Below, in pieces: positions 1,353 through 21,551 of a DNA stretch of 32,000 bases. Position 1 is the first letter of the stretch, and each line of letters opens with the position of its first letter. The position numbers and the translations under genes were made by a program. The stretch lies in assembly GCA_022646745.1 (NCBI GenBank), contig CP060262.1, forward strand, positions 420,001 through 452,000. The letters are read 5' to 3'. The stretch is from Planctomycetales bacterium (GTDB lineage: Bacteria; 4484-113; JAFGCY01). The notes under the pieces are model-generated. The model ran no database searches. It was not told the DNA's origin and saw nothing but the letters and a program-made list of their open reading frames with translations.

Positions 1353-1499
1353 GGATCAGGTTGCAGGGAGCTGGGAACAGGGGCAGGGAAGAGGCAGAAG
1401 GCAAAAGGCAGGAGGAGAAATAGAATGAGAATGAGAATGAGAAACAGAATGAGAATCAGCAGAGCCGAGGTGTAGCGGCGTCACCTCGCGACGACTACA
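1353..1499. repeat. Left arm of a repeat-built palindromic intergenic element
   Basis: GGCAG-rich tract, then the hexamer array AGAAAT AGAATG AGAATG AGAATG AGAAAC AGAATG AGAATC (about 1416-1456). This is followed by hairpin GTGTAG(1469-1474)...CTACAC(1494-1499) with inner CGTC/GACG pairing. An alternative stem pairs CGAGGTG(1465-1471) with CACCTCG(1481-1487). Confidence 0.8.
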
Positions 1500-1577
1500 C
1501 GCGAGCGGATACATCAGGGTGTAAACCTCCGGGAGTGAGATTCGCTTCCCTGTACAATTTCCTTTAGGAGCACTCTC

Positions 1578-1952
1578 TTGGGAAGTATCTTCTTCAATCG
1601 CAAACGAGATCTCGGCATTCCTGACATCGAGCGCATCGTCCTGCACGATGCGGAGATTCATTCCTTTGATGAACTGGATGGAGGCATTGTCAGGATAAAG
1701 GTGAATGACGGAACAGGTCAGCTTCAGTTACTGAATTTCACTGGCGTTTCCAGGATAAACAGTCTATTGCAGTTTAGCGACAAAGGAATATCCGTGAAGC
1801 AAGCCGCTACAGGTAGTGGGCTGGCTGGCGCAGAATGTGAAAGAATTGATCTGGGATTCAGGACTTATTTCTTGAACTTCAGTGGCAGGCCAATTCTCCT
1901 GATTGAGCACACCGGATTTGAGGTTGAGTTACTTGGAGAAATAGCGGGCTGA
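1578..1952 (+). CDS. Hypothetical 124-aa protein, low-GC orphan
   Basis: Track ORF with a TTG start 7 nt after AGGAG (1567-1571). It is visibly AT-richer than its neighbours and there is no competing ORF on the other strand. I recognise no family. Confidence 0.55.
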   Translation: MGSIFFNRKRDLGIPDIERIVLHDAEIHSFDELDGGIVRIKVNDGTGQLQLLNFTGVSRINSLLQFSDKGISVKQAATGSGLAGAECERIDLGFRTYFLNFSGRPILLIEHTGFEVELLGEIAG

Positions 1953-1995
1953 AGTTCGCTGTTTCAATTAGCTAACTTTGGTGCATTCTCTCCCA

Positions 1996-2076
1996 GTCGC
2001 GGCCAGGCCGCGCCGCTACTCATTCTCCTTCTGCTTCTCATTCTTTATCTGACCACTGCCTACTGACCACTGATTA
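1996..2076. repeat. Right arm of the same palindromic element (inverted relative to 1353-1499)
   Basis: The reverse complement reads CCAGTAATCAGTGGTCAGTAGGCAGTGGTCAG ATAA AGAATGAGAAGCAGAAGGAGAATGAGTAGCGGCG CGGCCTGGCCG CGAC. This is the same grammar as the left arm: heptamers, then GAGAAT-type hexamers, then GTAGCGGCG-hairpin-GCGAC. The arm runs into the TAA stop of the TPR gene (2074-2076). Confidence 0.75.
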
Positions 2077-2976
2077 CTGGTTCAGTTCGTCCCGTTTCGT
2101 GCGGTAGCCGGCGGCCTCATCCGCCTCGCCAAGCGTCTCGCAGATCATCACCAGCTCGTCCAGCAGGGCCACGCGGCGGTCGCGCACATCCACCTCGCCC
2201 TGGCCATCGATGGTGTCAAAGATCGCCAGCGCTTCCCTGATGAAGGCCCTGGCTTCCGGCAGCTTCTCCATGTGGAAGTTCGCCACCCCGGCGTGGTAGA
2301 TGATCTCGGCCGCATCCATGCTGGCCCCCAGCCTGTCGCTGGCGCTGCTGTCCGGGTCGTCCGCCAGCCGCGAGCTGAGCGCCTTGTTCTCCTGCAGTGC
2401 CTCCCCGAGCACCATCAGCGAGCCCTGGTAGTCGCCGGTGTTGATCATCAGCGCGGCCTCGTCGAACAGTGCGCCGTGCAGCTCATCGGGCTGGTCCTTG
2501 CGTACGCGGCTGACGCGCTCCTTGAAGGTGGCCAGCGCTTCGTCGTACTTGCCGAGTTCGTACTGGCTCTCGCCGATCACCTTCAGCGGATAGGGGCTCA
2601 TCTGGTCCGGGAAGTAGCGGTATCCGAGGTCAGCAGCCTCGCGCATGTAACTGATCGCCTTCTCGTACTCGCGGAAGAAGTAGTAGCAGTCCCCGAGCAG
2701 GAACACGCAGTCCACCAGGTGGTCGTAGTCCCCGGCATCGCGGAACACCTGTTCCAGCGGCAGCGCAGCCTCCATCGCCTCCTTCTCGCGGTCGTCCATC
2801 CGGAACAGTTCCTGGGCGCGCTCCAGCTCGGCGATGGCCTGGGTGTTGGTGATTGGCTTGGTGGGCACGCCGTTGGACTTGCCATCAACAGGTCCGCTGC
2901 CCTGGCCGTAGGCCAGCGAAAGGTTGCCAACTGCGATAAGTGTCGTGAACATGATGCGCATTCCCGTGGAGGACAT
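2074..2976 (-). CDS. Secreted TPR-repeat protein (300 aa)
   Basis: Track ORF 2074..3129, trimmed to the ATG at 2976, which is preceded by AAGGAG at 5-nt spacing. Signal-peptide-like MRIMFTTLIAVGNLSLAYGQ. TPR-like 34-mers such as LGDCYYFFREYEKAISYMREAADL, GESQYELGKYDEALATFKERV and AGVANFHMEKLPEARAFIREALAIF. Confidence 0.8.
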   Translation of the reverse strand: MSSTGMRIMFTTLIAVGNLSLAYGQGSGPVDGKSNGVPTKPITNTQAIAELERAQELFRMDDREKEAMEAALPLEQVFRDAGDYDHLVDCVFLLGDCYYFFREYEKAISYMREAADLGYRYFPDQMSPYPLKVIGESQYELGKYDEALATFKERVSRVRKDQPDELHGALFDEAALMINTGDYQGSLMVLGEALQENKALSSRLADDPDSSASDRLGASMDAAEIIYHAGVANFHMEKLPEARAFIREALAIFDTIDGQGEVDVRDRRVALLDELVMICETLGEADEAAGYRTKRDELNQ

Positions 2977-3045
2977 GGAATCTCCTTGATAAGGCCAATT
3001 GTACTGTGCAATCCGGGATGCAGGCCGCCCGTGGCTGCGGCAGGC

Positions 3046-3051
3046 TAGAAT
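3046..3051 (+). promoter_or_regulatory. -10-like TAGAAT, 6 nt upstream of ATG 3058 (leaderless or near-leaderless configuration)
   Basis: The sequence reads GCTAGAAT CAGGGG ATG. The same hexamer sits 6-9 nt from three other start codons in the window. No clear -35 element. Confidence 0.35.
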
Positions 3052-3057
3052 CAGGGG

Positions 3058-4617
3058 ATGCACGCACTGAAGCGAACCACCCTGCTGGCGGCCCTGCTGC
3101 TCGCCCTGCTGCCGGCCGCGGCCCGGCACAGCTCAGCAGAGGACACCGCGGGCGGCAGGCTGCCTGCACTGGACATGCTGCGCTCCGTCTCCAACACCGG
3201 AGACGCTGAGCAGGACGGCAGCGCGGCCTGGATGACGGGTGGCAATGCGCTTGCCAACGGAACGGAAATGGAATACGGCACGGTCAATGGCACAGTGGCC
3301 GGCTGGAGCATCCACTGCTTCGACCTGGCGGACCCGTTCAGCAAAGCCACGGTCAACCTGACGGCGGCACTCGGCGGGGTCTACATCGCGGTGGCGGACT
3401 TCCAGACTGGCCGCTGGGACTTCAGCGGTCCCTTCGCCGGCAACCGTCAGCTCGAGCTTGACAACACGGCCAACCGCAGCGGTGCCGGCAACCTGTTCAT
3501 CGCCGTGCTGGCGACCCGCGACAACAGCAGCCTGCAGTCCATCAGCGTGGACGGCGGCGGCAGCGGCGGTGAAGGCTACTTTGACGCGTCCCTCGGGATC
3601 GACATGGGCGAGTTCGTGGACCTCTCCGTTGTCAACGGCCGCCCGGCGGTGGCCTGCTACGACGCCACCAACCAGCAGCTGATGTACATCCGCGCCAACG
3701 ATGCCAGCGGCAGCAGCTGGGGCAGCCCGGCCTACCCGGACCCGGCCCTGAGCTGCGGGCTGAACCCGAGCCTCGCCGTGATCGACGGCCGCCCGGCGAT
3801 CGCATATGAGTCATTCGAGAACGGCACGCTGGACCTGAAGTACGTGCGCGCCAGCGATGCCGACGGCACGAACTGGGGCAGCCCGCAGGGCATCGTGTTC
3901 GCCACCAGCTTCGGCTACTTCCCGCAGCTGCGCGAGGTGGACGGCCGCCCGGCGGTGGGCTTCACCCACGACTTGGTCGTGCCGGGCAGCCTGAAGTTCC
4001 TGCGCGCCAATGACAGCACGGGATCCAGCTGGGGCTTCTCGGTGAATGTCGCCAGCGGGGCAGCCTTCGCCCAGATTGACATGGAAGTTGTCAATGGCAA
4101 CCCGGCGCTGTGCTGGACCAGTTCCGACGCCGAGAACGTGCACTACCTGCGCAGCTCCGACGCCCAGGGCTCCAGCTGGGGCAGCCCGCTGACGATCGAG
4201 GGCTCGCTGGCAGGCAGCTATGAAGCCAGCCTGGCGATCGTGGATGGCAAGCCGGCGGCCTGTTACACCGCACAGGAAGTGGACGAGCTGCACTACTGCC
4301 GCGCGAATGATGCCGACGGCTCGGCCTGGGGCAGCCCGCTGACGGTTGACAGCGGTGCTGAGACGGGGGCCTACTGCTCGCTGGTCTATGCCGAAGGCCT
4401 ACCGCAGGTGAGCTACTTCCACGGCGACGACGTGAACGAACTGAAGTTCGTGCGTGCGACTGACAGCAGCGGTTCGGCCTGGGGCACGCCACAGGTGCTT
4501 GACGCTGATGCCGGGCTCGGCACATCGATGGCCGATGTCAACGGCGTGGCCGCCCTCGCCTACTTCAGCCTCGGCCAGGGCCTGATCGGCTGGCTTTACG
4601 GGGTGCCCGCCAGCTAG
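3058..4617 (+). CDS. Secreted beta-propeller protein with seven Asp-box-like repeats (519 aa)
   Basis: Signal peptide MHALKRTTLLAALLLALLPAAA. Seven ~45-aa repeats of the form V[DN]G[RKN]PA..(Y/F)......L.(Y/F).RA.D..G..WG.P, for example VVNGRPAVACYDATNQQLMYIRANDASGSSWGSP and VIDGRPAIAYESFENGTLDLKYVRASDADGTNWGSP. The D..G..W spacing is one residue longer than the canonical BNR motif SxDxGxTW. Confidence 0.85.
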   Translation: MHALKRTTLLAALLLALLPAAARHSSAEDTAGGRLPALDMLRSVSNTGDAEQDGSAAWMTGGNALANGTEMEYGTVNGTVAGWSIHCFDLADPFSKATVNLTAALGGVYIAVADFQTGRWDFSGPFAGNRQLELDNTANRSGAGNLFIAVLATRDNSSLQSISVDGGGSGGEGYFDASLGIDMGEFVDLSVVNGRPAVACYDATNQQLMYIRANDASGSSWGSPAYPDPALSCGLNPSLAVIDGRPAIAYESFENGTLDLKYVRASDADGTNWGSPQGIVFATSFGYFPQLREVDGRPAVGFTHDLVVPGSLKFLRANDSTGSSWGFSVNVASGAAFAQIDMEVVNGNPALCWTSSDAENVHYLRSSDAQGSSWGSPLTIEGSLAGSYEASLAIVDGKPAACYTAQEVDELHYCRANDADGSAWGSPLTVDSGAETGAYCSLVYAEGLPQVSYFHGDDVNELKFVRATDSSGSAWGTPQVLDADAGLGTSMADVNGVAALAYFSLGQGLIGWLYGVPAS

Positions 4618-4643
4618 CCATCTCCGGCAGTCCCTGTTCTGGG

Positions 4644-4649
4644 TATAAT
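4644..4649 (+). promoter_or_regulatory. Possible -10 box TATAAT upstream of 4676
   Basis: Perfect TATAAT 26 nt upstream of ATG 4676, with AGGAGG (4664-4669) in between. No convincing -35 element. Confidence 0.3.
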
Positions 4650-4675
4650 CTGCCAGGGCCAGCAGGAGGAATAAT

Positions 4676-6289
4676 ATGCCTGCACTTATCGTGCTGCTTG
4701 CCATCGGATCGTTGCTGGTCTGCTCATGTGGCAGTACCTCCTTTGAAAACACGGGAGGCTGGGCTGGGGATCCGCCGGCCTCAATCCACTCCACCTCCGG
4801 GCTGGTCGCTGTCAGCACAGCTGGCAAGTCCAGCTTCAATCGCTCAGCCTCAGCAATCCAGTCCGGCGACGCCCTGCAACTCAACGAGGATGCAGCCGGC
4901 AGCAGCTGGGGCATCTGGAAGCTGGAGAGCGGTGGCTATGGGCTGGCCGGACTGGAGATCGAGCTTGAGGTGCAGGGCGGCCCCGGCGTCTGGATCGGAC
5001 TCGCCGATTACAGTACGGGTCACTGGGAGTTCAGTGGTCCGTACGTGACGAACGCCAGCCTGGAACTGGAACAGCCGAAGCACCTCTCACCCGCTGGCAA
5101 TGTGTTCTGTGCGGTGCTCTGTCCGGAATCCGGGCCTGCACTGGTCCACGGGCTGGCCCTGCTGACCAGTCGCAGCGGCTGGCAGGTGGTGCCCCTGTCC
5201 AGTGGCGATGCCGTCGGCAACCATCCAACGCTGGCTGTGGTGGACGGTACGCCTGCCATCAGTTTCATTGATTCCCAGAATTCGCTGACCAGGGTCAGCT
5301 ACATCCGTTCCCTGTCCGACAGCGGGGCAGACCCCTCCCACTGGGCGCCGGCGATCAGCATCCGCGAGCAGTTTGATGAATTCTCCGACCCATACATTCC
5401 GCCGACAGGACTGGTTGTCGCCGATGGCAACCCCGCGATCCTGTTTGCCGGAGCCACCTCGTTCGAAACTTCCTACATCCGTTCAACCAGCACGGATGGG
5501 ATGGCCAAGGCGGACTGGCAGCAGTTTGCCCTGATCGCCCCCGGCACCTCGAGCGGCGGCCTGCTGGCCATTGTGGACGGGCATCCCGCGGCGGTTTACT
5601 GGGACGATGCCAGCCAGCACCTGGTCTATGTGAGGTCGGCGACCGCAAGCGGTGCCTCCCCGGCGGACTGGAATAACAGGATTGATATTGCCTCATCGGG
5701 CACGGGCCTGTTCGGCGAATCGCTGGCAGTGATAGACGGCAGGCCGGGCATTGCTTGCTCAGCGCCCAGCGGGAATCCCAGCCTGTACCTGCACAGTGCG
5801 ACGCCTGCCGGTGACAACCAGCTGGACTGGGCCGGCCAGATCCTGCTGGCGGGCAGTGCTGACATGCGAAATGCATTCCTTGCCCCGGTCGCCGGCAGGC
5901 CGGCAATCACGTTCCATGATCCCGGCACCGGCAAGCTGCGCTATGTGCGCGCGGATGATGCAGGCGGGGATTCCGCCTTGGCATGGCCCGCCGCTGTCGA
6001 CATCACCGCCACGTCCGTCCCGTTCGCGGTAAGCCCCCTGCTGGAGGTCAGTGGCAAGCCGGCCACGGCCTGGTTTGACGACGGCAGCGGCTCACTGATG
6101 TATGCACGCTCCAGCGGGCCTGGCGGGATGGCGGCAGGGGACTGGAACGCCCCGGCTGTTGTCGACAACGCGGTGCCGGAAGGCGGCCACATGTCAATGG
6201 CACTCGTTGCCGGACACCCAGCGATTGCATACAGTGTGCTGACCAGCCCCTCCACGGAGGAGCTGCGCTACGCCATCCTGCTCGACTGA
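4676..6289 (+). CDS. Secreted (possibly lipidated) beta-propeller paralog (537 aa)
   Basis: AGGAGG lies 6 nt before the ATG. N-terminus MPALIVLLAIGSLLVCSCGS. Seven repeats such as VVDGTPAISFIDSQNSLTRVSYIRSLSDSG..HW, IVDGHPAAVYWDDASQHLVYVRSATASG..DW and PVAGRPAITFHDPGTGKLRYVRADDAGG..AW. It shares the N-terminal GLADYSTGHWEFSGPY block with 3058..4617. Confidence 0.85.
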   Translation: MPALIVLLAIGSLLVCSCGSTSFENTGGWAGDPPASIHSTSGLVAVSTAGKSSFNRSASAIQSGDALQLNEDAAGSSWGIWKLESGGYGLAGLEIELEVQGGPGVWIGLADYSTGHWEFSGPYVTNASLELEQPKHLSPAGNVFCAVLCPESGPALVHGLALLTSRSGWQVVPLSSGDAVGNHPTLAVVDGTPAISFIDSQNSLTRVSYIRSLSDSGADPSHWAPAISIREQFDEFSDPYIPPTGLVVADGNPAILFAGATSFETSYIRSTSTDGMAKADWQQFALIAPGTSSGGLLAIVDGHPAAVYWDDASQHLVYVRSATASGASPADWNNRIDIASSGTGLFGESLAVIDGRPGIACSAPSGNPSLYLHSATPAGDNQLDWAGQILLAGSADMRNAFLAPVAGRPAITFHDPGTGKLRYVRADDAGGDSALAWPAAVDITATSVPFAVSPLLEVSGKPATAWFDDGSGSLMYARSSGPGGMAAGDWNAPAVVDNAVPEGGHMSMALVAGHPAIAYSVLTSPSTEELRYAILLD

Positions 6290-6299
6290 AACCCGTCCG

Positions 6300-9200
6300 C
6301 TACAGCGTGCTCAGCATCCAGATCTGGTCCGTGAAGTTGTCACGGTAGAAGATGTGCCAGCGTCCGTCGGGGTCCTCGCACAACTCGAACATCGACTTGC
6401 CCGCCAGTCCGTCCGGCAGCGGCAGGGATTCCCAGTCACCGAAGTTGCTCCACTGGAAGTCCAGCTCGCGGCCCTCGACATCACCCATCAGCATCAGCCC
6501 GGTCTGGCTGCGCAGGGTCTCGCAGCTGACCGTGCGGCGCTCATCGCGCAGCAGCGGCTCGGGCAGGCTGCCGAACTGGCTGCTTGCGGAGTTGCCGAAG
6601 TAGTCAACCACATAGCGCAGGGCCCGGCCATCAGCGCCGTAGGTGGAGAAGAAGGCCTGGTCCGTCAGGTAGGGCACGTTGCCGAGGTAGCTGCAGGTCG
6701 CCAGCCCGCGGCCGCGGACCATCATGTCATCCTGCAGGTCAGCCGGGAACTGGTAGACCTTGTTGTCAACAAGCTCATAGGTGTCCTGATTGGACTGGTA
6801 GAGGGCGAGGCTGGATGCGGCCGGACTGACCCCGCCGCAGCGGGCGAAGATCCGCGAGCGGTAGCCGATGTTGTTGACGACACCGTTCCAGACCGGCCTG
6901 AGCGCCGGTGTATGGCTGGCCGCGCTGTAGTCCAGCAGCGGAGCACCTGTGTTGTAGTGCCCGATCACCTCCTGCGCCAGTTCGGTGCCTGAGTCGAAGG
7001 CATACCAGAGCATGTCATCACCGAAGGAGCGCTTCGCCAGCATTGGGCGGTAATCCAGCGAGCCCATGCTCACGGTGGCCTGGCTGGTCAGCCCGATGCC
7101 GTCCCAGTAATACAGCTTCTGGCTGATGCCGTCATTCACGCTGTAGTAGGCCTGCCCCAGCCCGTCGCTGCCGTTGGTCCAGTACTGTCCGAACATCAGC
7201 AGGTAGAAGTTCCAGTTGTCACCGTGGTCGTTGCTGTAGCGCAGCTCGGACTGCGCGCCGTCCATGTTGGTCCAGGTCACATGCAGCTGCACGGCCTGCT
7301 GGGAGGCATGCATCGCGCTGCCCTGCCCCTTGGAGCGCGGCAGGTAGCTGTTGACCGGGCTGGAACCGTCGTCGGTGATGCGCATGGCGCGCATCTCACC
7401 GTCAATCGTCGTGTCAACGAGGTCCAGCGTGCGTTCGCCGACCTGGGCGTCCATCACCGCCATCGGGTAACCGGAGTTCGTGCTGTGGGACAGTACGCTG
7501 TGCACATCCCAGCTGCTGCCGTTGAAGCGGTAGACCCGCGCCTGGCCGCTGGCATAGGCGAAGCTGCAGTAGATGTTGTCAACGGTGGTGATCGATGCCC
7601 CGCTGCGGTTAACCTCGGTGTTGTCAATCGGGGCCGGGGCGGACCACATGCCGAGCTCGTCCATCGCGGTCCATTGGTAGGGGGAGGTCTCAAGCACCAG
7701 CACCGGGCGGTCGGTGACCGGGTCGATCACCGGCATGCGCGGGTCTCCGACCAGCGCGGCGGCAATCTGCCCGCTGTCCACCACGTTCAGTGCGAAGTCC
7801 AGCTGGTACCACAGCAGCTCCGTCAGGGTCTGCACGAACAGGAAGGTGCCGGCGTCACTCTCCCGGGCGACGGCACCGATGCGGTAGACATCACCGACGT
7901 TCTCCGCGATCAGGATCGGTTCGAGCAGGTTGTCCAGCCGGTAGGCCACGATGTCCTCGTCGACAGTGCCGGTCCGGTTGCAGAAAAGGAAGTTGTTGTT
8001 GAAACTGGCGCTCGTCAGTGCCAGCACCTTGCTGTCCAGCAGCGGCGGGCCCTCCACCCAGTGCTTGCCCTCGTAGTCAAACACCGCGAGCCAGGCCCGG
8101 TTGTCCATTGAGGCCGCCATCACGATGCCTTCGGTGTAGATCGGCGCGGTGAGGGCATCCACCGGCCAGTATGCCGGCAGCAGGTCAAGTGTGGCGTCCG
8201 GGTCACCGAAGCCGTATTCCCACATGCCGACACCCTGCAGGCGGCGCTCGTAACCGAACAATGTCGGCAGGCCATTGAGCCCGAAGCGCATGCTCGGGTA
8301 CCAGATCCGGGACTGGGTGCTGGTTGAGGTGTCCTCCACGAGTTTGGGCGCGCTGTCCCATTGTGGGTAGACCTTCAGCAGCCGGCTGGCCGTGGCGAAA
8401 CGAGCGTCAGTCGTTGACACCGTGAACTGCAGGAAGTGGCAACCCGGCTGCAGCGTGAAGCTGATCTTGCCGTCCGTGGCCGGCAGCGCGCCGATGCTCG
8501 GGCTGGCAATCACCCACTGGTCAATGCCGACTCCCTCCGGGTCATAGCTGTCTGTGCCGAAGTCGACGTCCACCGTCACGGGGCCGTAGAGCGGGCCGCT
8601 CGGGGCGTGCACGACGATCACGGGATCCTGTTTCGTCCCGATCACGGATGCGCCCTGGAACAGCAGCCAGGGGCTGCGGTTGCCACTGCTGTCCTCGGCG
8701 GCCAGGCGGTAGCGGTAGCCCTGGCCCTCCTGGATCGTGTCGTCAACGAAGCTGCTGTCATTCACCAGCCCGGTGCCTACTCCTGCATAGTCGCCGAACA
8801 GCATCGGTGCCCGCTCCAGCCGGTAGCCGGCGAAGTCGGCATCGGCGGAGTCCGGGCTGTGCATCCAGCTCATATAGAGGGAGGAATAGCCGGTTGGCAG
8901 GGTGACCAGGGTCGGGGGACGCGGGGCGGAGTTGCCACCGTCGACGCCAAGCTCGATCCTGGAGAAGTCGAAGCTGTCATTTGTGGCGAGCATCAGGCCC
9001 ACATAGGCAATGCCGGAGGGAGACAGGTAACGCCGCTGGGAACCGGGCTCATCCAGCCCGGGGAATTCGATAGTGGCGTCGTCCGTAAAGGGTCCGATTA
9101 CGCGCCAGCGGCCGATCTGGAAATCCGCCGCGATGGCGAAGTATTCGCCGACCGGGTCGTCACTGGCATCCGTGCGCAGGCTGGTCGGGAAGGCATCCTC

Positions 9201-9527
9201 GCCGAAACCGCTGACGGGATACACAATGAAGGCGGATGCGCCGTTACCAAACAGGTGCAGCGAGCCTCCGAGGTTTTCGGCATTGAGTGAGTTCCACTGG
9301 CCACCTTCATAGTAGGGGTCTATGCTGTGCCATCCCGGTCCGCTGATCGAAATGCTGCGCTGTGCTTCCAGGGCTTCAAGCGGCGGAAGGCCGGGGCTTT
9401 CCATCCCCGTTGCAGGACCGGTGACAGGGGAATCAATCTCCTGCATGGGCTGCTGGGCAGACCCGGAGCAGGAAGCGGCAAGCAGCGCAATCATCGCGCA
9501 AAACAGCAGCGCAAGTCTGGCGGTCAT
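6300..9527 (-). CDS. Large probable lipoprotein (1075 aa) with the shared N-terminal domain, FN3-like and PKD-like modules
   Basis: GAGGA lies 7 nt before the ATG. MTARLALLFCAMIALLAASCSGS is signal/lipobox-like. AIAADFQIGRWRVIGPF matches the N-domain of the two propeller genes. An FN3-like segment (PPTLVTLPTGYSSLYMSWM...GYRYRLAAEDSSGNRSPW) is followed by a PKD-like segment (VTVDVDFGTDSYDPEGVGIDQW). Confidence 0.85.
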   Translation of the reverse strand: MTARLALLFCAMIALLAASCSGSAQQPMQEIDSPVTGPATGMESPGLPPLEALEAQRSISISGPGWHSIDPYYEGGQWNSLNAENLGGSLHLFGNGASAFIVYPVSGFGEDAFPTSLRTDASDDPVGEYFAIAADFQIGRWRVIGPFTDDATIEFPGLDEPGSQRRYLSPSGIAYVGLMLATNDSFDFSRIELGVDGGNSAPRPPTLVTLPTGYSSLYMSWMHSPDSADADFAGYRLERAPMLFGDYAGVGTGLVNDSSFVDDTIQEGQGYRYRLAAEDSSGNRSPWLLFQGASVIGTKQDPVIVVHAPSGPLYGPVTVDVDFGTDSYDPEGVGIDQWVIASPSIGALPATDGKISFTLQPGCHFLQFTVSTTDARFATASRLLKVYPQWDSAPKLVEDTSTSTQSRIWYPSMRFGLNGLPTLFGYERRLQGVGMWEYGFGDPDATLDLLPAYWPVDALTAPIYTEGIVMAASMDNRAWLAVFDYEGKHWVEGPPLLDSKVLALTSASFNNNFLFCNRTGTVDEDIVAYRLDNLLEPILIAENVGDVYRIGAVARESDAGTFLFVQTLTELLWYQLDFALNVVDSGQIAAALVGDPRMPVIDPVTDRPVLVLETSPYQWTAMDELGMWSAPAPIDNTEVNRSGASITTVDNIYCSFAYASGQARVYRFNGSSWDVHSVLSHSTNSGYPMAVMDAQVGERTLDLVDTTIDGEMRAMRITDDGSSPVNSYLPRSKGQGSAMHASQQAVQLHVTWTNMDGAQSELRYSNDHGDNWNFYLLMFGQYWTNGSDGLGQAYYSVNDGISQKLYYWDGIGLTSQATVSMGSLDYRPMLAKRSFGDDMLWYAFDSGTELAQEVIGHYNTGAPLLDYSAASHTPALRPVWNGVVNNIGYRSRIFARCGGVSPAASSLALYQSNQDTYELVDNKVYQFPADLQDDMMVRGRGLATCSYLGNVPYLTDQAFFSTYGADGRALRYVVDYFGNSASSQFGSLPEPLLRDERRTVSCETLRSQTGLMLMGDVEGRELDFQWSNFGDWESLPLPDGLAGKSMFELCEDPDGRWHIFYRDNFTDQIWMLSTL

Positions 9528-9639
9528 GGATCATCCTCATCATCTATCTGATTCCCGGAATGGCGTTTGCGGCCTCAAGCAGCCTCGACCCACCAACCGG
9601 TTAGCAAAATAGTACGCCAGCAGGAACTGATTCGATACC

Positions 9640-9830: not shown

Positions 9831-9885
9831 GTAGGACCAGGTTTAGCGAAATCGACCCGGGATGTACCCGGGAGCCGCTGGTACC

Positions 9886-9891
9886 TATAAT
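9886..9891 (+). promoter_or_regulatory. Possible -10 box TATAAT for the nfeD-flotillin operon
   Basis: Perfect TATAAT 73 nt upstream of ATG 9965, with a weak -35 (TGTACC, 17-bp spacer). The predicted leader contains hairpin CCGGAT CAT ATCCGG (9912-9926). Confidence 0.3.
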
Positions 9892-12582: not shown

Positions 12583-12583
12583 C

Positions 12584-13242: not shown

Positions 13243-13280
13243 ACGAACAATCCTCTAACCGATCTAACAGTCAACGTCTG

Positions 13281-13315
13281 CAGGTGCATCGCCAGGTGCA
13301 CCTGTGGCGTTTTTC
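13281..13315 (+). terminator. Rho-independent terminator after the zinc-ribbon gene
   Basis: CAGGTGCA (13281-13288) pairs with TGCACCTG (13297-13304). An alternative stem is GCCAGG-TGCA-CCTGTGGC. A TTTTT run lies at 13310-13314. Confidence 0.65.
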
Positions 13316-14862: not shown

Positions 14863-15717
14863 GTGATGGGAATCCGCAGCTTCATTGGCATCATTGCCAT
14901 CCTCGCGCTCGCGTGGCTCAGCTCCTGCCCGCAGTCGCAGCCGGCCACGGACGGACAGGCCGCCGCCCCGGCGCGCGAAGCATCCAAGCCACGCAGGCTC
15001 AGGCTCGTATGCGACCCGCTGCTCGTCAGCCTGCTGGAAACGCTGGAGCCGGAGCTTGGCAACGGCCTGAAGGGCTACGACCTGGAACCGCTGGAGCGTG
15101 GCGAGCTGCTGGACAAGCTGGCAGCCGGCGAGAAGTTCGCGGGCGTGGATGCCTTCCTGTTCTCCGATCCTGAAGTGCGCACGGCACTGAGCGGGGCCGG
15201 CCTGCTCAGTGAGGCCACCATGCGCACCTTCGCCGGTGACCGGCTGGCGCTGGTTGCCCGCAAGGGCGAAAGCTGGCGCGCGGAAAGCCTGTTTGACATC
15301 TACCGCCTGCGCTTCAAGTGGCTGGGCGTCGGCAGCGAACGGACCGTGACCGGCTACTATGCCCCGCAGGCGCTGGTCACCGACGGGGTCATGCCGCGCG
15401 TGGAGGACCGCCTGAGCCATCCGGACACGGCGGCGGCGATCCTGCAGGAGCTGCTGGACAAGGGTTCGCAGATGGCGATCGTGCCGCGCTCGCTGATCGT
15501 TGGCAACGAGGAGACCAAGCTCGTGCTGCTGCTGCCGCGCGACCTGCATGAGGACTTCATCTACCAGGTGGCGGCGGCCAGCGGGCTGGAGGATGACAGC
15601 TCCGTGATGGCGCTGCTCACCGGGCTGGCCGAGAATGAAGCGGTGCAGGCCCTGATCGCAGGGTATGGTTTTGACAATCGCGACGAGGCGATGGGACTGA
15701 ACGTCGCACCGGAGTAG
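14863..15717 (+). CDS. ModA-like periplasmic substrate-binding lipoprotein (molybdate/tungstate-type PBP2 fold)
   Basis: Signal peptide and lipobox (IAILALAWLSSC). DAFLFSDPEVRTALSGAGLLSEATMRTFAGDRLALVARKG and VGSERTVTGYYAPQALVTDGV are colinear with the ModA blocks. The start is GTG 14863 or ATG 14866. Confidence 0.5.
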   Translation: MMGIRSFIGIIAILALAWLSSCPQSQPATDGQAAAPAREASKPRRLRLVCDPLLVSLLETLEPELGNGLKGYDLEPLERGELLDKLAAGEKFAGVDAFLFSDPEVRTALSGAGLLSEATMRTFAGDRLALVARKGESWRAESLFDIYRLRFKWLGVGSERTVTGYYAPQALVTDGVMPRVEDRLSHPDTAAAILQELLDKGSQMAIVPRSLIVGNEETKLVLLLPRDLHEDFIYQVAAASGLEDDSSVMALLTGLAENEAVQALIAGYGFDNRDEAMGLNVAPE

Positions 15718-15756
15718 TGGGCAGTGGCCAGAATGAGAAGCAGAAACAGAAGCAGG
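15712..15756. repeat. Single repeat arm between convergent genes
   Basis: GAGTAGTGGGCAGTGGCCAGAATGAGAAGCAGAAACAGAAGCAGG. The TAG stop of the ModA-like gene (15715-15717) lies inside the CAGTAG-type unit. The arm fills the whole gap up to the convergent stop at 15758. Confidence 0.7.
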
Positions 15757-15757
15757 T

Positions 15758-16553: not shown

Positions 16554-17999
16554 ATGAGTTATCCCTGGTGGCACGTGCCATTCCTGACGGCACCGATGCT
16601 GATCGCCCTGATCGCCACGGTGCATGTGCTGGTGTCGCACTATGCAGTCGGCGGCGGGCTGTTCCTCGCGGTGGAGACAAGCCACGCATACAAGCACAAC
16701 GACGAGGGTTACCTCGCCTACCTCAAGCAGCATGCCTGGTTCTTCGTGCTGCTGACGGTGGTGTTCGGGGCGATCACCGGAGTCGGGATCTGGTGGATCA
16801 TCGGCCTCGCAAGCCCCTTGGCCACCCACTTCCTGATCCAGACATTCGTATTCGGCTGGGCCACGGAATGGGTGTTTTTCGTGATTGAACTCGCGGCTGG
16901 CTTCGCCTTCTATTACTTCTGGGGCAAGCTGGACCGCAGGACGCATGTGGCAATGGGCTGGATCTACGCTGCCGCCGCCTGGATCAGCCTGGTGCTGATT
17001 ACGGGGATCACGGCCTTCATGCTGGACCCCGGCCAGTGGCCCGAAACGCACAACTTCTGGCACGGCTTCTTCAACCCGCAGTTCCTGCCGCAGGTGCTGG
17101 CCCGCACGGGAGCAGCATTCCTGCTGGCATCGATGTATGTCTACTTCCATGCCTCCTTCAAGTGCCAGGACACCGACCTGCTGCGCTACATCGAGAGGCG
17201 CAGCAGCCGCCCGGCGATGCTCGGCAGCGCTCTCGTTGCCAGCGGCGGGCTGTGGTGGTACCTGCTGCTGCCGGCCAGCAGCAAGGCCGCCCTGCAGGGC
17301 GCGGCGGTGATCAACGTGCTGATGGTGATCATGTTCACGCTGACCATCGTGGTATTCGCGCTGCTGTACATCGGCCCCTACCGCAACCCCGGCTGGCTCA
17401 GCCCGGGCTTCGCGATCATGTTCCTCGGCTTCGGGCTGGCGGCAACCGCCACCGGCGAGTACATCCGCGAGGCGGTGCGCAAGCCCTACATCGTCTACAA
17501 CCTGGTGCTTGGCAACCAGGTGCTGGCGGAGAAGGTGCCGCTGCTGCGTGAGAATGGCTTCATCGAGGGCACGCGCTGGCCCTCGGCCTGGCTGGCGGCC
17601 CGGCACCCGCAGCTCGTCACCACGCATCCCGATGGCAGCCTGACGGTTGACGAGCAGGGCATGCTGGCGCTGCCGAAGTATGACCGGGTGGAGATCGGCG
17701 AGGTGCTGTTCATGTACCACTGCAACGACTGCCACGCGGAGCGCAGCGGTGTCAACGCGATGGAGCACCTGCTGACCGGCTGGAGCCGCGAAATGGTGGC
17801 GACCTCCGTGCGGCACCCGGAGAAGCTGAAGTACTTCATGCCGCCCTGGAGCGGCACTGACGCCGAGGCGGAGATCCTGACGGACTACCTGATGGACATG
17901 CGCCCGGAGATGCCGGAGGGCATGTTCTTCGGCGGGCGGCATGACAGCCTGTCCGACGTGCAGGCGATGATTGGCAACACTGTGGAGGAGGCAAGATGA
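16554..17999 (+). CDS. Cytochrome bd-family subunit I (CydA)-like membrane protein fused to a C-terminal mono-heme cytochrome c domain
   Basis: GGAG lies upstream of the ATG. The first ~130 aa (IATVHVLVSHYAVGGGLFLA...FGAITGVGIWWIIGL...FGWATEWVFFVIELAAGFAFYYFWGKL) are colinear with the CydA helices I-III pattern. The C-terminal soluble domain carries CNDCH (a CxxCH heme c site). Confidence 0.55.
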   Translation: MSYPWWHVPFLTAPMLIALIATVHVLVSHYAVGGGLFLAVETSHAYKHNDEGYLAYLKQHAWFFVLLTVVFGAITGVGIWWIIGLASPLATHFLIQTFVFGWATEWVFFVIELAAGFAFYYFWGKLDRRTHVAMGWIYAAAAWISLVLITGITAFMLDPGQWPETHNFWHGFFNPQFLPQVLARTGAAFLLASMYVYFHASFKCQDTDLLRYIERRSSRPAMLGSALVASGGLWWYLLLPASSKAALQGAAVINVLMVIMFTLTIVVFALLYIGPYRNPGWLSPGFAIMFLGFGLAATATGEYIREAVRKPYIVYNLVLGNQVLAEKVPLLRENGFIEGTRWPSAWLAARHPQLVTTHPDGSLTVDEQGMLALPKYDRVEIGEVLFMYHCNDCHAERSGVNAMEHLLTGWSREMVATSVRHPEKLKYFMPPWSGTDAEAEILTDYLMDMRPEMPEGMFFGGRHDSLSDVQAMIGNTVEEAR

Positions 18000-19132
18000 T
18001 GGATCCCAACGGCCTGATTGCCCCTGTCAACGAACTGGGCTACCCCGCCCCGTTCTGGTTCCTGATCTTCTTCCGCGTGCTCGGGTTCACGCTGCACCTG
18101 CTGCCGATGAACCTGTGGTACGCCGGCACGATCACCGCGATGCTGCTCGGCCTGTCCCGCATCCCCGAGGCCCGGCGCTTCAGCGCGCGGCTGATGTCTC
18201 AGATGCCCTTCATCATCGCCTTCGGTGTCAACCTCGGCATCGTGCCGCTGCTGTTCCTGCAGGTGATGGGCTACCGTGTGTTCTACAGCGCCACGATCCT
18301 GATGGCCTGGCAGTGGCTTGCGGTGATCGCGCTCCTGTGCCTGGCCTACTACGGCGTGTACATCTACGCTGTTGGGCTGCGCACGGCGAAGCAGGGCCAG
18401 CTGAAAGCCTGGCAACGCGCCAGCGGCTGGGCCAGTGCGCTGCTGTTCATCCTGATTGCAGTGATCTTCCACAGTGCGATGAGCACGATGGCCGATCCTG
18501 GCAGCTGGCCGGCGATCGCTGAGCAGACCGGCCGGGCCGCCGCCGTGTACGGCACGGCGCACAGCCTGGCGGACCCGCACATGTGGGTGCGCATGCTGTT
18601 CTTCTTCGGCCTGGCGCTGACAACGACCGCGGCATACGTTTCATTTGACGGAGCGATGCTGGCCGGGCATGAAACTGACGACTACCGCAAGTGGACCCGT
18701 GGTTTCGCGCCGCAGCTCTACACGGCAGCGCTTGTTGTCTACGGCATCGGCGGGCTGCTGTACGCCAACAGCTGGGATGCCGGACTGCGGGACTACATGA
18801 CGGCCGGGAGCGCCCTGCCCTTCGCCGCGCTGGCGGCAATCGGCCCGGCGATCCCGCTGGGGCTGCTATGGCTTGGACGCAATGCCGCGAAGGCCGGCCT
18901 GTGGGTGATCATCGCGCAGTTCCTCGTGCTGGGCCTGCATGCGATCGCACGGCAGCTGGCGCAGAACTTCCGCCTGGCACCCTACCTTGACATCGCCGCC
19001 GACCCGGTGAAGATGCAGGTCGGTCCGCTCGTGATGTTCCTTGTGAGCTTCGTGCTGGGACTGGGCGTGCTGGGCTGGATCATCGCAAAGTTGGTGCAGG
19101 CCAACAGGAAGGCAGTAGTGAGTGGGCAGTAG
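17996..19132 (+). CDS. Polytopic membrane partner subunit (378 aa), translationally coupled
   Basis: Its start overlaps the upstream stop (ATGATG; ATG 17996, TGA 17997-17999). It has about 8-9 hydrophobic helices. The last codons and the TAG stop are encoded by CAGTAG-type repeat units. Confidence 0.75.
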   Translation: MMDPNGLIAPVNELGYPAPFWFLIFFRVLGFTLHLLPMNLWYAGTITAMLLGLSRIPEARRFSARLMSQMPFIIAFGVNLGIVPLLFLQVMGYRVFYSATILMAWQWLAVIALLCLAYYGVYIYAVGLRTAKQGQLKAWQRASGWASALLFILIAVIFHSAMSTMADPGSWPAIAEQTGRAAAVYGTAHSLADPHMWVRMLFFFGLALTTTAAYVSFDGAMLAGHETDDYRKWTRGFAPQLYTAALVVYGIGGLLYANSWDAGLRDYMTAGSALPFAALAAIGPAIPLGLLWLGRNAAKAGLWVIIAQFLVLGLHAIARQLAQNFRLAPYLDIAADPVKMQVGPLVMFLVSFVLGLGVLGWIIAKLVQANRKAVVSGQ

Positions 19133-19318
19133 GCAGAATCAGAATGAGAATCAGAATGAGAAACAGGGTGAGAATCAGGGTGAGAAGCAGAATGAGAATG
19201 AGAATGAGGTGTTCAGACTGCCAGCTGACAACCACCTTCTGCTGCTTCTGTTTCTAATTCTGCAAACTAAAACCGGTTCGGCACTGACCACCGACCACTG
19301 ACTACTCACCACTGCATC
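19111..19318. repeat. Long imperfect palindrome built from heptamer and hexamer arrays
   Basis: Left arm: GGCAGTAGTGAGTGGGCAGTAGG followed by about 13 hexamers (CAGAAT/GAGAAT/CAGGGT/GAGAAG). Centre: TGTTCAGACTGCCAGCTGACAACCACC. Right arm: TTCTGCTGCTTCTGTTTCTAATTCTG ... CACTGACCACCGACCACTGACTACTCACCACTG, the inverted counterparts of the left-arm units. Confidence 0.8.
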
Positions 19319-19377
19319 TGTGCTAATCTGGAATGACAGCCGAAGCGAGCCGGCGACATACCAGCAGGAGCACAGAC

Positions 19378-19827
19378 ATGTTCAAGGAATTCCGTGAATT
19401 CGCCATGAAAGGCAACGTGATCGACATGGCGATCGGCATCGTGATCGGCGGGGTGTTTACCCCGATCGTGCAGTCCCTGGTCAACGACCTGATCATGCCG
19501 CCGCTCGGCCTGCTGACCGGCGGGATCAGCTTCGCCGACAAGTTCATCCTGCTGAAGCCCGGCGCGGACGGGGCAGCCAGCTATGCCACACTTGCGGCGG
19601 CGCAGGAAGCCGGCGCGGTGACGATCAACTACGGCTCCTTCATCAATGTGATCATCACCTTCCTGCTGGTGGCCTGGGCGGTGTTCATGGTCGTCAAGGT
19701 GATGAACCGCCTCAAGCGCGAGGATGAGGCCCCGGCGGCCGAACCGACCACCAAGTCCTGCCCGCAATGCGCGATGGAGATCCCGATCGCGGCGAAGCGC
19801 TGCGGCCACTGCACGAGCGAGGTGTGA
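19378..19827 (+). CDS. mscL: Large-conductance mechanosensitive channel MscL with a C-terminal four-Cys zinc ribbon
   Basis: Track ORF trimmed to ATG 19378 (AGGAG 7 nt upstream). [44 protein letters not shown] is the canonical MscL N-terminus and TM1. The C-terminus reads [18 protein letters not shown]. Confidence 0.9.
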
Positions 19828-19836
19828 GGAACAGTT

Positions 19837-19868
19837 GTCAGTAGGCAGTGGGCAGTAGGCAGGCAGGC
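19837..19868. repeat. Heptamer array filling the mscL-to-next-gene spacer
   Basis: GTCAGTAGG CAGTGGG CAGTAGG CAGG CAGG C, directly abutting ATG 19869. Confidence 0.7.
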
Positions 19869-20633
19869 ATGAACATCTGGGGACAGCAGGAAAGCACGGA
19901 AGGGATCGACATTCCGGCACCGGACGGGGTCCGGCGCGACGAGTTCCTGTTTCGGCCATCCAACCGCCTGTATCCATCTCCTGACTCCCCGATGGAACCG
20001 CTGCTGCTGCAGTGGGAAATCGATGTTGCCAGGCTGGATGCGATTGCCAATCCAGCGCTGCGCAGCTACGCGGCTGAGCAGCTGCGGATCGTGAGCGCCT
20101 ATGCCATGGCATCGCGCAACAGCGGGCCGCTGCTCGTGGTCGGCCTGCTTGCCCTGCTGGGCCTGCCGCTGCTGCTGAGCCTGGCCTATTCCGGCTACGG
20201 AACGGGGGTGACCGTGGTGGCTGTCATGACAATTGTGCTGATAGTGGCTGGCTTCATCCAGCTGGCCCGGGAGGATGACCTGCTGAAGGTCATCCCGAGC
20301 AATGCCCGGACCCGCCAGCGCTTCGCCGACCGGCTGGTGCACTGCCTGCTTGACAACTCACCATCCGGCCAGCAGCCTGTTGCCCTGCTGTCAGCGCAGC
20401 TGCAGCAGCGGCCGGACAGGAATGTCGTGGCAGCGCTTGAGGCGTTCCGGCTGGCCTGCGTCAGCGACCCGCTGATGTACATCGGCAACCCCGTGCCGCA
20501 GCTCGGCTTCGGCTCACAGTCCGGCAACCATGAGATCGCGCTCAGCCGGCTGGCGGTGCTGCAGTTCCTCAGTGCGTTGACGGTGGAAGGGGAATACCGG
20601 GCCGGGGACGGGAATCCAGCGATGCCTGAATGA
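19869..20633 (+). CDS. Hypothetical two-TM membrane protein, possible distant member of the paralog family (254 aa)
   Basis: Track ORF trimmed to ATG 19869. It has a polar N-tail, a hydrophobic hairpin (GPLLVVGLLALLGLPLLLSLAY / GVTVVAVMTIVLIVAGFIQL) and a soluble tail whose RQRFADRLVHCLLDNSP weakly recalls the NLLDRGLL block. Confidence 0.6.
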   Translation: MNIWGQQESTEGIDIPAPDGVRRDEFLFRPSNRLYPSPDSPMEPLLLQWEIDVARLDAIANPALRSYAAEQLRIVSAYAMASRNSGPLLVVGLLALLGLPLLLSLAYSGYGTGVTVVAVMTIVLIVAGFIQLAREDDLLKVIPSNARTRQRFADRLVHCLLDNSPSGQQPVALLSAQLQQRPDRNVVAALEAFRLACVSDPLMYIGNPVPQLGFGSQSGNHEIALSRLAVLQFLSALTVEGEYRAGDGNPAMPE

Positions 20634-20687
20634 TGGAGGCAGGGCAGTAGCCATGCATTTGTTGCCAGCAGGAAGGGAGAGGCGGCT

Positions 20688-20778
20688 GAAGTCACTCAGT
20701 CACTCAGTCAAAAAGTCAATTGACATCCATTGAATTGTTGCGGATTGACTAATTGACTTCGTGACTAGGTGACTTGAT
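20688..20778. repeat. Octamer-armed palindromic element
   Basis: GAAGTCACTCAGTCACTCAGTCAAAAAGTCAATTGAC faces GATTGACTAATTGACTTCGTGACTAGGTGACTTGA, an imperfect inverted copy. It contains the perfect 10-bp palindrome GTCAATTGAC (20715-20724). Confidence 0.75.
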
Positions 20779-20789
20779 TCGTGCAAGTT

Positions 20790-20807
20790 GCCAGACTTTC
20801 GTCTGGC
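20790..20807. other. Stem-loop GCCAGAC-TTTC-GTCTGGC, 19 nt beyond the stop of the minus-strand gene
   Basis: Perfect 7-bp stem with a 4-nt loop and no U-tract on either strand. Only a possible terminator. Confidence 0.3.
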
Positions 20808-20825
20808 CTCCAGGCAGCAGCTCCC

Positions 20826-21476
20826 TCAGTTCATCCGTCCGAGCTTCTTCAGGTGGCGGCGGTAGTCGCTGCGCAGTTCGTAGAGGATGCGCTCCACCTC
20901 CTGCACAATGCCGTCCGGCCACTGCTGCCCGCTGATCCCGGCGTAGTCGTACTCGCTGCCCAGTTCCTGCACCACGATGCGCGTGGCATCCCAGTCGGCG
21001 GCATGCCCGAGGAAGCTGCGCAGGTAGTCCGGGAAGCGCTCCTCAGCGATCAGGTGCCGCTTGGAACGCAGCAGCAGGTTGATCAGGCGGTTGATGCGCG
21101 AGAAGTAGTCGCGGTCGAAGCGCGCCGCGATGCGTTCGATGCGGGCCTCGATCTCGTGCGGGTCATCGCCCCTGGCAGCGCCCTCCGCACGGATGCGCTG
21201 GGTGATTGCGCGCAGGATTTCGTAGTAGGTGTTGGTTTCGTGGAGGTAGCCCACAAGCGGGCCGTAGAGCTGGCTGATCTGCTCCTGCAGGAAGCGCACC
21301 CGGGAGTCATGGCGGGCGGCGTTGTGGTCACTGCGGTTGGACAGCCAGGTCCGAAGCAGCAGTGCGGTGAGGTAGAAGATACCGCCGGCGGCGGCACCGA
21401 TGATGGCGGACTGTAGTTCAACACTGATTACGAAGGCAGGCTCCAGCCCCGGGTTGGGGAGCAGGAAGTATAGCAA
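20826..21476 (-). CDS. Hypothetical single-TM protein (about 216 aa, start uncertain)
   Basis: The track ORF 20826..21641 would read through the G-rich repeat and overlap the divergent gene. I trimmed it to in-frame TTG 21476. There is no in-frame ATG and no SD. It has one TM helix (AIIGAAAGGIFYLTALLL) and then a helical soluble domain. No family recognised. Confidence 0.5.
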   Translation of the reverse strand: MLYFLLPNPGLEPAFVISVELQSAIIGAAAGGIFYLTALLLRTWLSNRSDHNAARHDSRVRFLQEQISQLYGPLVGYLHETNTYYEILRAITQRIRAEGAARGDDPHEIEARIERIAARFDRDYFSRINRLINLLLRSKRHLIAEERFPDYLRSFLGHAADWDATRIVVQELGSEYDYAGISGQQWPDGIVQEVERILYELRSDYRRHLKKLGRMN

Positions 21477-21478
21477 AG

Positions 21479-21551
21479 GAGGGATGCGGGATGCGGGATG
21501 GGGTATGCGGAAGTGGTTGGAGTTTGGAGTGGGGAGGTTGGAGTGGGGAGC
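21479..21551. repeat. G-rich tandem repeats in the divergent promoter region
   Basis: GGGATGC GGGATGC GGGATGG GGTATGC followed by GGAGTTTGGAGTGGGGAGGTTGGAGTGGGGAG. Positions 21481-21503 fit G3+N1-7 x4. Confidence 0.8.

Follow-up and report, generated by a model that had tools for sequence, protein, structure and literature searches.

Tandem arrays of 6-8-nt units anchored at stop codons in the intergenic spacers of an uncultured Planctomycetales bacterium

Intergenic heptamer repeats, among them the short tandemly repeated repetitive (STRR) sequences with units CCCCAGT, TTGGTCA and CAACAGT, were first known in 1990 and occur in large numbers in some large genomes, but have no accepted function. 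The heptamer repeats GGGAATC of Xanthomonas and GGGGAYT of Nostoc are 89-93% intergenic, lie mostly 0-50 nt past stop codons on the coding strand or before start codons on the non-coding strand, and form 70-75 convergent inverted pairs among ∼185 repeats (∼40%) (Rehm et al. 2015, PMC4692102). Their positions are conserved while their lengths vary across species, and their function was not found (PMC4692102). As summarised in PMC4692102, Mrazek et al. 2007 found an excess of heptamers among the long simple sequence repeats (SSRs) of large, high-GC, non-pathogen genomes, and an explanation by polymerase slippage is cited there. Here, a window of 32,000 nt (positions 420,001 to 452,000 of contig CP060262.1, assembly GCA_022646745.1) from an uncultured Planctomycetales bacterium (GTDB lineage 4484-113; JAFGCY01) was analysed. 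Its intergenic spacers carry tandem arrays of 6-8-nt units that begin at, or provide, the stop codon of the upstream gene.

An original prediction had listed eight spacers composed largely of such units, and both the sequence and Tandem Repeats Finder (TRF) place the units where they had been described. The spacers are designated S1 to S7 in Table 1, S1 combining two of the eight (1353-1499 and 1996-2076). The gene map was built from the G+C content at third codon positions (GC3) of the window open reading frames (ORFs) together with the called genes of relatives, and arrays were counted by TRF at periods of 5-8 and 10-14. The window is ∼63% GC, with GC3 of 0.75-0.90 in genes and ∼50% GC in spacers. 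Arrays cover 517 of the 3021 nt of non-coding DNA (17.1%) and 57 of the 28979 nt of coding DNA (0.20%). In 100 dinucleotide-preserving shuffles of the spacers, array cover averaged 6 nt and never exceeded 49 nt, the real value being ∼85-fold higher. TRF periods across all eight spacers are 7, 14, 8 and 6, and tandem repeats within genes have periods that are almost all multiples of 3. The strand asymmetry reported earlier for the arms is evident in the composition of 19135-19208 (80% purine, 7% C) and 19282-19314 (45% C, 12% G), and antisense arms contain 30-56% C and 0-16% G. Scans of the window returned zero Rfam matches at the gathering score, and no transposase or integrase in Pfam.

Relatives used for comparison were L119 (GCA_041395205.1), in which RlmN is 94% identical to that of the window, L123 (GCA_024645305.1; flotillin 92% identical), L120, a European Nucleotide Archive (ENA) bin labelled 4484-113 (RlmN 82% identical), L128, a 773-nt ENA contig 98% identical to window positions 1333-2110, and L037, a metagenome-assembled genome (MAG) labelled UBP7 HKST-UBA01. 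L120, L121 and L122 are identical across their overlap and therefore give no data on polymorphism. Beyond the closest MAGs, RlmN identity falls to 65%, then to ∼41% against Bacteroidota and Gemmatimonadota. The restriction of arrays to non-coding DNA is also seen in L119, L123 and L120.

When the arrays of this clade were oriented to the purine-rich strand, the unit families were found to have a common form, SAG followed by 3-5 nt, nearly every unit beginning with CAG or GAG and at times TAG. The families are CAGTRGG, SAGAAK, GAGYAAT, SAGACAT, GAGTKKG, GAGTGACT and GAGGGAT. Successive SAG cores are 6 nt apart in 51 cases and 7 nt apart in 65, and the families differ from each other by one mutation or indel, for example GAGAAT, GAGTAAT and CAGACAT. 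The common core, the anchoring at stop codons and the fixed polarity were all absent from the original prediction.

The stop codon of the upstream gene marks where an array starts, and in several arrays it lies inside the first unit, as in the minus-strand sequence CAG TAA TCAGTGG at 2074 and in S3, where the first unit holds TAG (GAG TAG TGGG at 15715). The last heptamer of the S4 left arm provides the stop codon at 19130-19132 (GGG CAG TAG). A stop in or at the first unit was likewise found in L119, L120, L123, L125 and L037. Among stop-adjacent arrays of the clade, the G/purine-rich strand is the sense strand in 16 of 17 (0.50-0.88 purine). Next to a stop, units nearly always contain one of the stops TAG and TGA and recur with a period of 7 or 8, so that a stop is met in every frame within three units. 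The rule noted earlier, that heptamers stand at the gene end and hexamers follow, is accounted for in the same way. Stop-free arrays (GGGATGC and GGAGTKG) are confined to the one divergent spacer, S7.

The arrays also mislead gene callers by read-through. A public gene call of 416 aa in L119 (19136-20386) crosses heptamer and hexamer arrays and the hairpin core, whereas its window orthologue ends at the first array TAG, at 378 aa.

Orthologous spacers differ by whole units. The S4 spacer, 5′ of mscL, is orthologous in L119, where the flanking heptamers and the core are conserved but the left hexamer array differs by 28 nt (∼13 hexamers in the window, ∼5 in L119); on the right, a single 6-nt unit separates the hexamer arms and a single 7-nt unit the heptamer arms. 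Between L128 and the window, S1 differs by one 7-nt unit in a spacer that is otherwise 98% identical, and GGGATGC is present in 4.3 copies in the window and 1-2 in L119. L123 retains the heptamers at the end of the TPR gene, but it lacks the hexamer arms of the 748-nt S1 spacer as well as the low-GC ORF within it. The whole-unit indels show replication slippage, in line with the slippage-prone character originally suggested. They also rule out an assembly artefact, and the recurrence of arrays in L119, L123, L128 and L037 shows that these are not confined to the window. Array cover of non-coding DNA declines with phylogenetic distance, from 17.1% in the window to 8.1% in L119, 8.1% in L123 and 5.1% in L120. 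In more distant relatives it is 2.3% in L125 (RlmN 65%), 1.3% in L126 (61%), 0.7% in L127 (53%) and 0.8% in L124, which comes from the ENA assembly that also holds L127. The arrays are thus real, slippage-driven and fast-evolving, and have been amplified in one clade of an uncultured phylum.

An independent set of loci was obtained by scanning for CAGTRGGCAGTRGGCAGTRGG, which gave at least 120 metagenomic loci and 71 viral contigs, from which 224 arrays were analysed. The GC content of these (CAGTRGG)3 loci ranges from 0.35 to 0.72, and arrays contain 3-21 units. Some of the viral contigs come from IMG isolates, one of which, 2622736609, carries three perfect (CAGTAGG)6-8 modules. Of 206 arrays, 106 have a complementary (CCYACTG)n arm downstream at a distance of up to 300 nt, and such an arm lies upstream in 3 of 207; the median distance between arms is 32 nt. 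The nearest same-strand coding-like ORF ends between -7 and +6 nt from the array start in 57 of 107 cases, and the stop codon at the array is TAG in 68%, compared with 36% for other ORFs of the same loci. When the flanking 240 nt were classed by the codon pattern GC3>GC1>GC2, which leaves out antisense 'shadow' ORFs, 62 genes ending at an array were sense and 4 antisense. Cores were similar across loci in 2 of 66 modules. L283 has three modules in one genome, with perfect arms and unrelated cores, and the cores of S1 and S4 in the window genome are also unrelated. Many of the metagenomic contigs end within the arrays, indicating that assemblies break there. The finding of CAGTRGG arrays with the same architecture in more than 190 metagenomic or viral loci, along with the Xanthomonas and Nostoc precedent (PMC4692102), contradicts the earlier view that the type is unrecognised or genome-specific.

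A scan for exact (GAGAAT)3.3 found at least 118 loci or genomes in many phyla, about half of them inside ORFs, where they predict Glu-Asn repeats; among the loci listed, exact (GAGAAT)n arrays outside ORFs have no clear polarity. In several Bacteroidota loci (L003, L008, L011, L092 and L116), the spacers hold degenerate GAG-NNT hexamer arrays in alternation with REP-like hairpins, which may represent the same phenomenon in another phylum.

Inverted arms are present in four of the spacers (S1, S2, S4 and S6). It had been proposed that several spacers follow a common grammar of heptamers, hexamers, core, inverted hexamers and inverted heptamers. This full form is limited to 1353-2076, if taken as one unit, and 19111-19318, while 12584-12776 and 20688-20778 have inverted arms of one unit type each, and each of 15712-15756, 19837-19868 and 21479-21551 is a lone arm without a partner. 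Paired arms are true inverted copies, beyond being built from the same unit type, because an irregular unit order is common to both arms (GCAGTRG TGAGTRG KCAGTRG in S4, AATGAGC AATGAAG ARTGAG in S2). Either strand of a paired module can form a long imperfect hairpin, and the repeated stem tolerates register shifts and unit indels.

Folding supports the earlier suggestion of long imperfect hairpins in these four of the eight spacers. S1, in which the arms are ∼500 nt apart, has a z-score of -4.3 on the minus (sense) strand when folded whole. The minimum free energy (MFE) z-scores of S2 are -5.2 (plus strand) and -5.5 (minus strand), and those of S6, in which 6-bp helices are split by 2x2 internal loops, are -3.2 and -6.7. 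S4 has z-scores of -1.2 and -3.7, with -70 kcal/mol for the sense strand and -81 kcal/mol for the antisense strand. Comparison of S4 with L119 showed 46 pairs kept, 1 compensatory and none broken, and S2 and its L037 homologue have 46 pairs kept, 2 compensatory in the core and none broken; with two sequences in each comparison, this compensatory evidence is weak. Because the sense strand does not consistently fold better, selection at the RNA level is not demonstrated. The idea of sense-specific RNA selection by way of G-U asymmetry is likewise unsupported, as the preferred strand varies among spacers.

The possibility raised earlier that the modules are terminators is not supported for terminators of the classical type. 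There is no U-tract after the second arm of S2, S4 or S6, and only 11 of 106 (CAGTRGG)3 modules have a T-tract past that arm. The flotillin gene has a canonical intrinsic terminator, which stands before the S2 repeat hairpin and is kept in L123, and a second true terminator was found in the window at 13278-13313.

Table 1. Repeat arrays and associated features in the window
Feature	Position	Strand	Description
S1 distal arm	1370-1460	-	TRF and sequence
GC-rich hairpins at inner end of S1 distal arm	1462-1510		CGAGGTG...CACCTCG; sequence
Low-GC (47%) ORF, 124 aa	1578-1952	+	Between S1 arms, antisense to both flanking genes
S1 proximal arm	1996-2079	-	Begins at TPR-gene stop codon 2074-2076
REP-like unit	12474-12499	+	GGAGG-CCAGGCTG-TCA-GCCTGG-CAA, directly 3′ of flotillin stop codon
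Palindromic heptamer array CAGACNT/ANGTCTG	12503-12551		CAGACGT CAGACAA CAGATCT vs GACATCT GAAGTCT GGAATCT
Canonical intrinsic terminator of flotillin gene	12557-12583	+	9-bp GC stem, then TTTTT
S2 module	12584-12777		AATGAGY left arm 12584-12640, structured core 12641-12746, complementary right arm 12747-12777
GCAACCT x2 mini-array	12835-12851	+	Holds the 13-mer CCTGCAACCTGAT; TRF
S3 single arm, convergent genes	15715-15757	+	TAGTGGG CAGTGGC, then CAGAAT GAGAAG CAGAAA CAGAAG
S4 left arm	19111-19208	+	Heptamers GCAGTAG TGAGTGG GCAGTAG, then ∼13 SAGAAK hexamers
S4 core	19209-19236		GGTGTTCAGACTGCCAGCTGACAACCACC; conserved in L119
S4 right arm	19237-19318	+	Complementary hexamers (CTTCTG...), then complementary heptamers (CACTGAC...)
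S5 single arm	19835-19868	+	CAGTTGT CAGTAGG CAGTGGG CAGTAGG CAGG CAGG; between mscL stop and next start
S6, convergent genes	20688-20778		Octamer arms AGTCACTC, reverse complement GAGTGACT
REP-like unit	20788-20811	-	GGAGG-CCAGAC-GAAA-GTCTGG-CAA, 15 nt past stop of minus-strand gene 20826-21470
S7, divergent spacer	21479-21551	+	GGGATGC x4.3 and GGAGTKG x4

In S1, the distal arm read on the plus strand has GGCAGRR heptamers at 1370-1415 followed by GAGAAT/CAGAAT hexamers at 1416-1460, with 83-84% purine and 3-16% C. The proximal arm, on the minus strand, consists of the heptamers CAGTAAT CAGTGGT CAGTAGG CAGTGGT, GAGAAK hexamers and a GC-rich hairpin GCGGCGCGGCCTGGCCGCGAC (1996-2016). The coding status of the ORF that lies between the arms is uncertain. 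A Pfam search with it gave no match, and it is missing from the orthologous spacer of L123. The one homologue found, 98% identical and from the same species, has the same context, which is uninformative as to whether the ORF is mobile cargo, and that candidate was not retained.

The 13-mer CCTGCAACCTGAT was predicted to recur as its reverse complement. It does so beyond chance, with 2 matches against 0.06 expected, but the coordinates first given were slightly off, the true positions being 12839-12851 (plus) and 1355-1367 (minus). Both copies are located at the outer end of a pyrimidine-rich arm, 30 nt and 132 nt before the next gene start, and the 13-mer is kept in L128.

The palindromic array at 12503-12551, which was absent from the original prediction, belongs to the SAGACAT family, as does a 14.6-unit array in L120. 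The neighbouring S2 module is wholly missing from the orthologous spacer of L123, where the adjacent terminator is kept. A homologue was detected in L037 (3485-3680) in a non-syntenic, unrelated gene context; its arms match those of the window at 97% identity across 33 nt, and the core is conserved. The arms close a multi-branch core with GGAGCC-GCGAAGC-GCA-GCTTCGC, and a second hairpin contains the compensatory pairs CATGCA/TGCATG and CACGCC/GGCGTG. A 23-mer from the core has no match in the Joint Genome Institute (JGI) metagenomes. The S2 module may represent a small RNA, or else a palindromic unit that is mobile.

The right arm of S4 ends 15 nt before the start of mscL. An array of the S5 type is also found 3′ of the mscL stop codon in L119, despite a different downstream gene. 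The predicted MscL channel (19333-19827) has a zinc-ribbon-like C-terminal extension, with a match to UPF0547 under the Pfam cut-off. The S7 units have no stop codon and no inverted partner, and the GGGATGC x4 segment at 21481-21510 is the only potential G-quadruplex in the arrays of the window.

Repetitive extragenic palindromic (REP)-like units form a separate family in which GGAGG precedes a 7/8-bp stem with a 3/4-nt loop, followed by CAA. The stem sequences vary but always pair. Besides the two sites in the window (Table 1), units were found in L119 (17601), L120 (19136-19190) and L037, which has six copies (1563-1660 and 1811-1859), four of them in tandem. They stand directly past stop codons, with TAG-GAGG in three cases. 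A different family, GGAGCGCYGSCGTCCCGSCGGCAT, recurs every 56 nt in the more distant relative L124/L127. In L119, a 167-nt unit present in 1.8 copies (93% identical) at 17615-17917 contains CACGAAG/CTTCGTG heptamer motifs and comes after a hexamer array downstream of an acetyltransferase gene.

Elsewhere in the window, the region 3058-9527 between the TPR gene and a gene for 255 aa holds three large ORFs, of 519, 537 and 1075 aa, for which Pfam gave no match. The two flanking genes are adjacent in L123, which indicates a 6.5-kb insertion or deletion. The divergent spacer at 9528-9964 includes a segment of 33-38% GC (9600-9800) that has a palindrome, TGAATTAC-TTGAAG-GTAATTCA, and no tandem arrays, and is probably a shared promoter or operator region. 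At 21589-29681, approximately ten co-directional ORFs of 185-262 aa follow each other closely or overlap; Pfam gave no match for any of them, and a similar run is found in L119 and L120.

The best explanation for the arrays, held with moderate confidence, is that they are long SSRs of SAG+N3-5 units, built by slippage and anchored at stop codons, with paired forms that would act as 3′-end stem-loops lacking a U-tract and as a barrier of stop codons. Arrays gain and lose whole units by replication slippage. They begin at or provide the stop codon at the 3′-end of a gene, with the G/purine-rich strand as sense, and in approximately half of cases a complementary array follows past a locus-specific core, always with the G-rich arm first. 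On the transcript, the paired form may be a terminator, a 3′-end protector or an insulator between genes, and the stop-bearing proximal arm may be a frame-independent stop barrier, while single arms might be nascent or decayed halves. The polarity rules (stop anchoring, 62:4 and 106:3) tie the repeats to the ends of translation or transcription rather than to random slippage, and make the function of a long-known repeat class testable. Several observations weigh against this explanation. Hexamers are unable to give stops in all frames, sense-strand folding is not consistently better (S4), arms are unequal in length (in S4, 13 vs ∼5 hexamers), three of the eight spacers are single-armed, a canonical terminator already stands before the S2 module, and S7 sits in a divergent promoter region. 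Turnover is also fast, since S2 and the S1 hexamer arms are missing in a relative with 92% protein identity, and array density in relatives of 53-65% RlmN identity is no higher than background, at 0.7-2.3% of non-coding DNA, so that the arrays are dispensable. A broader form of this explanation, which we regard as doubtful, is that the arrays make up a class of stop-anchored 3′-end elements that is widespread but has as yet no name. In this class a heptamer array would provide stops in all frames and form the 5′ half of a stem that tolerates register shifts, and the strict G-arm-first order (106:3) would reflect a mechanistic need of termination or insulation. One candidate for this need is that the C-rich arm be kept from Rho on the sense transcript, with a C-rich, G-poor loading site exposed to antisense transcripts where arms are single. 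If so, slippage would build and tune these terminators or insulators.

Some of the same observations are expected if the arrays are a neutral by-product, slippage junk tolerated in spacers, with polarity arising from a filter for orientations that bear stops and lack starts and Shine-Dalgarno sequences, and inverted arms arising by template switching at pre-existing hairpins, without function. Such an origin fits with indels of whole units, fast turnover, arms that are unequal and many that are single, the clade-specific density and the lack of a sense-strand folding preference, as well as with the polymerase-slippage idea cited in PMC4692102. However, an upstream stop would protect the ORF in either orientation, so neither the 62:4 polarity nor the 106:3 arm order follows from the filter by itself. 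Further points against a neutral origin are that a small number of unit families come back at many loci and in different genomes, that arms have a common irregular unit order, and that pairing is kept between orthologues. A neutral origin with an orientation filter is a serious rival and a real possibility, though we do not think it probable.

Insertion of small non-autonomous mobile elements at gene 3′ ends, resembling MITEs (miniature inverted-repeat transposable elements) or REP doublets forming hairpins (REPINs) and with arrays as terminal inverted repeats, would account for the S2 homologue in a different context in L037 and for its absence from the orthologous spacer in L123. The GT(A/G)G inside CAGTRGG also bears what we take to be a resemblance to the REP head recognised by REP-associated tyrosine transposases (RAYTs). 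This is unlikely as a general origin and fits the S2 module only. Cores are locus-specific (2 of 66 similar) and unrelated within the same genome, target-site duplications are not visible, single arms are common, unit number changes in place, and the Pfam scan found no transposase nearby in the window. The invariant SAG with a variable 3-5-nt spacer in all unit families, and the strict polarity relative to transcription, could alternatively reflect periodic sites for a multimeric protein. TRAP binds (G/U)AG repeats, HutP binds UAG-N4 repeats, and Rho prefers C-rich, G-poor RNA. A ring protein of the TRAP/HutP type might bind SAG every 6-7 nt of the sense RNA or, in another version, the C-rich, G-poor antisense strand with its periodic YC, in keeping with the composition of the antisense arms, might be a site at which Rho loads to block transcription that is antisense or reads in. 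Either version appears improbable. No candidate protein turned up in ∼150 kb of clade sequence, in which no search aimed at one was made, the exact (GAGAAT)n arrays in other phyla lack a clear polarity, and, because the families interconvert by single mutations or indels, the SAG core can reflect common descent. An assembly or sequencing artefact at contig joins, which might be suspected from the many contigs that end inside arrays, is refuted by four independent assemblies (L119, L123, L128 and L037), each of which has these arrays at the corresponding positions, with conserved flanks and whole-unit differences.

As the original prediction had stated, the arrays are not CRISPR, MITE or strict REP sequences, the cores being unique and the units not palindromic. 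Units are contiguous and 6-8 nt long, unlike the identical 24-48-nt repeats and unique spacers of CRISPR. In contrast to a MITE family, 64 of 66 cores are unique and target-site duplications are not visible at arm ends; the exception is the S2 module, with one homologue elsewhere (L037). The arrays lie at or past stop codons and, since stops occur in all frames, unit number is irrelevant to the ORF, which sets them apart from the SSRs of contingency loci. REP sequences and the bacterial interspersed mosaic elements (BIMEs) formed from them are thought to stabilise mRNA 3′ ends or attenuate transcription. Like these, the modules are intergenic, occur at gene 3′ ends, form hairpins and inverted pairs, and are found in mosaics with other motifs. 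A REP, however, has a fixed sequence that forms a 20-40-nt imperfect palindrome and owes its spread to RAYTs, whereas the stems here are made of tandem 6-8-nt units that are not palindromic, around unique cores. The separate GGAGG-hairpin-CAA units do have the palindrome of a REP. The modules also resemble intrinsic terminators, including the 'I-shaped' type that lacks a U-tract, in having a stem-loop directly past the stop codon and bidirectional symmetry between convergent genes. They differ in that they have no U-tract, their stems are far longer and imperfect, and canonical terminators exist separately in the genome.

The closest correspondence is with intergenic heptamer SSRs. Like the STRRs of heterocystous cyanobacteria, the arrays comprise several tandem heptanucleotide families distributed across the intergenic regions of large non-pathogen genomes, although the units are not STRR units and the host is not a cyanobacterium. 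To our knowledge, anchoring at stop codons has not been described for STRRs. With the Xanthomonas and Nostoc repeats, the arrays share tandem heptamers, an intergenic location, a G-rich strand that is the coding strand past stops, inverted pairs and length variation. They differ in unit sequence, in holding stop codons, in mostly lacking the potential to form G-quadruplexes, in combining several families and hexamers in a fixed order, and in their host, an uncultured phylum. G-quadruplexes, which need at least four G3 tracts, are ruled out as a general explanation, because most units, including SAGAAK, GAGYAAT, SAGACAT and CAGTAGG, have no G3 tract. The tandem ∼7-nt units, restriction to non-coding DNA, sense polarity and variation in unit number are those of heptamer SSRs, and the window arrays are thus of the same kind as the STRRs and the Xanthomonas and Nostoc heptamer repeats, an already described but little-studied type that is unusually dense here.

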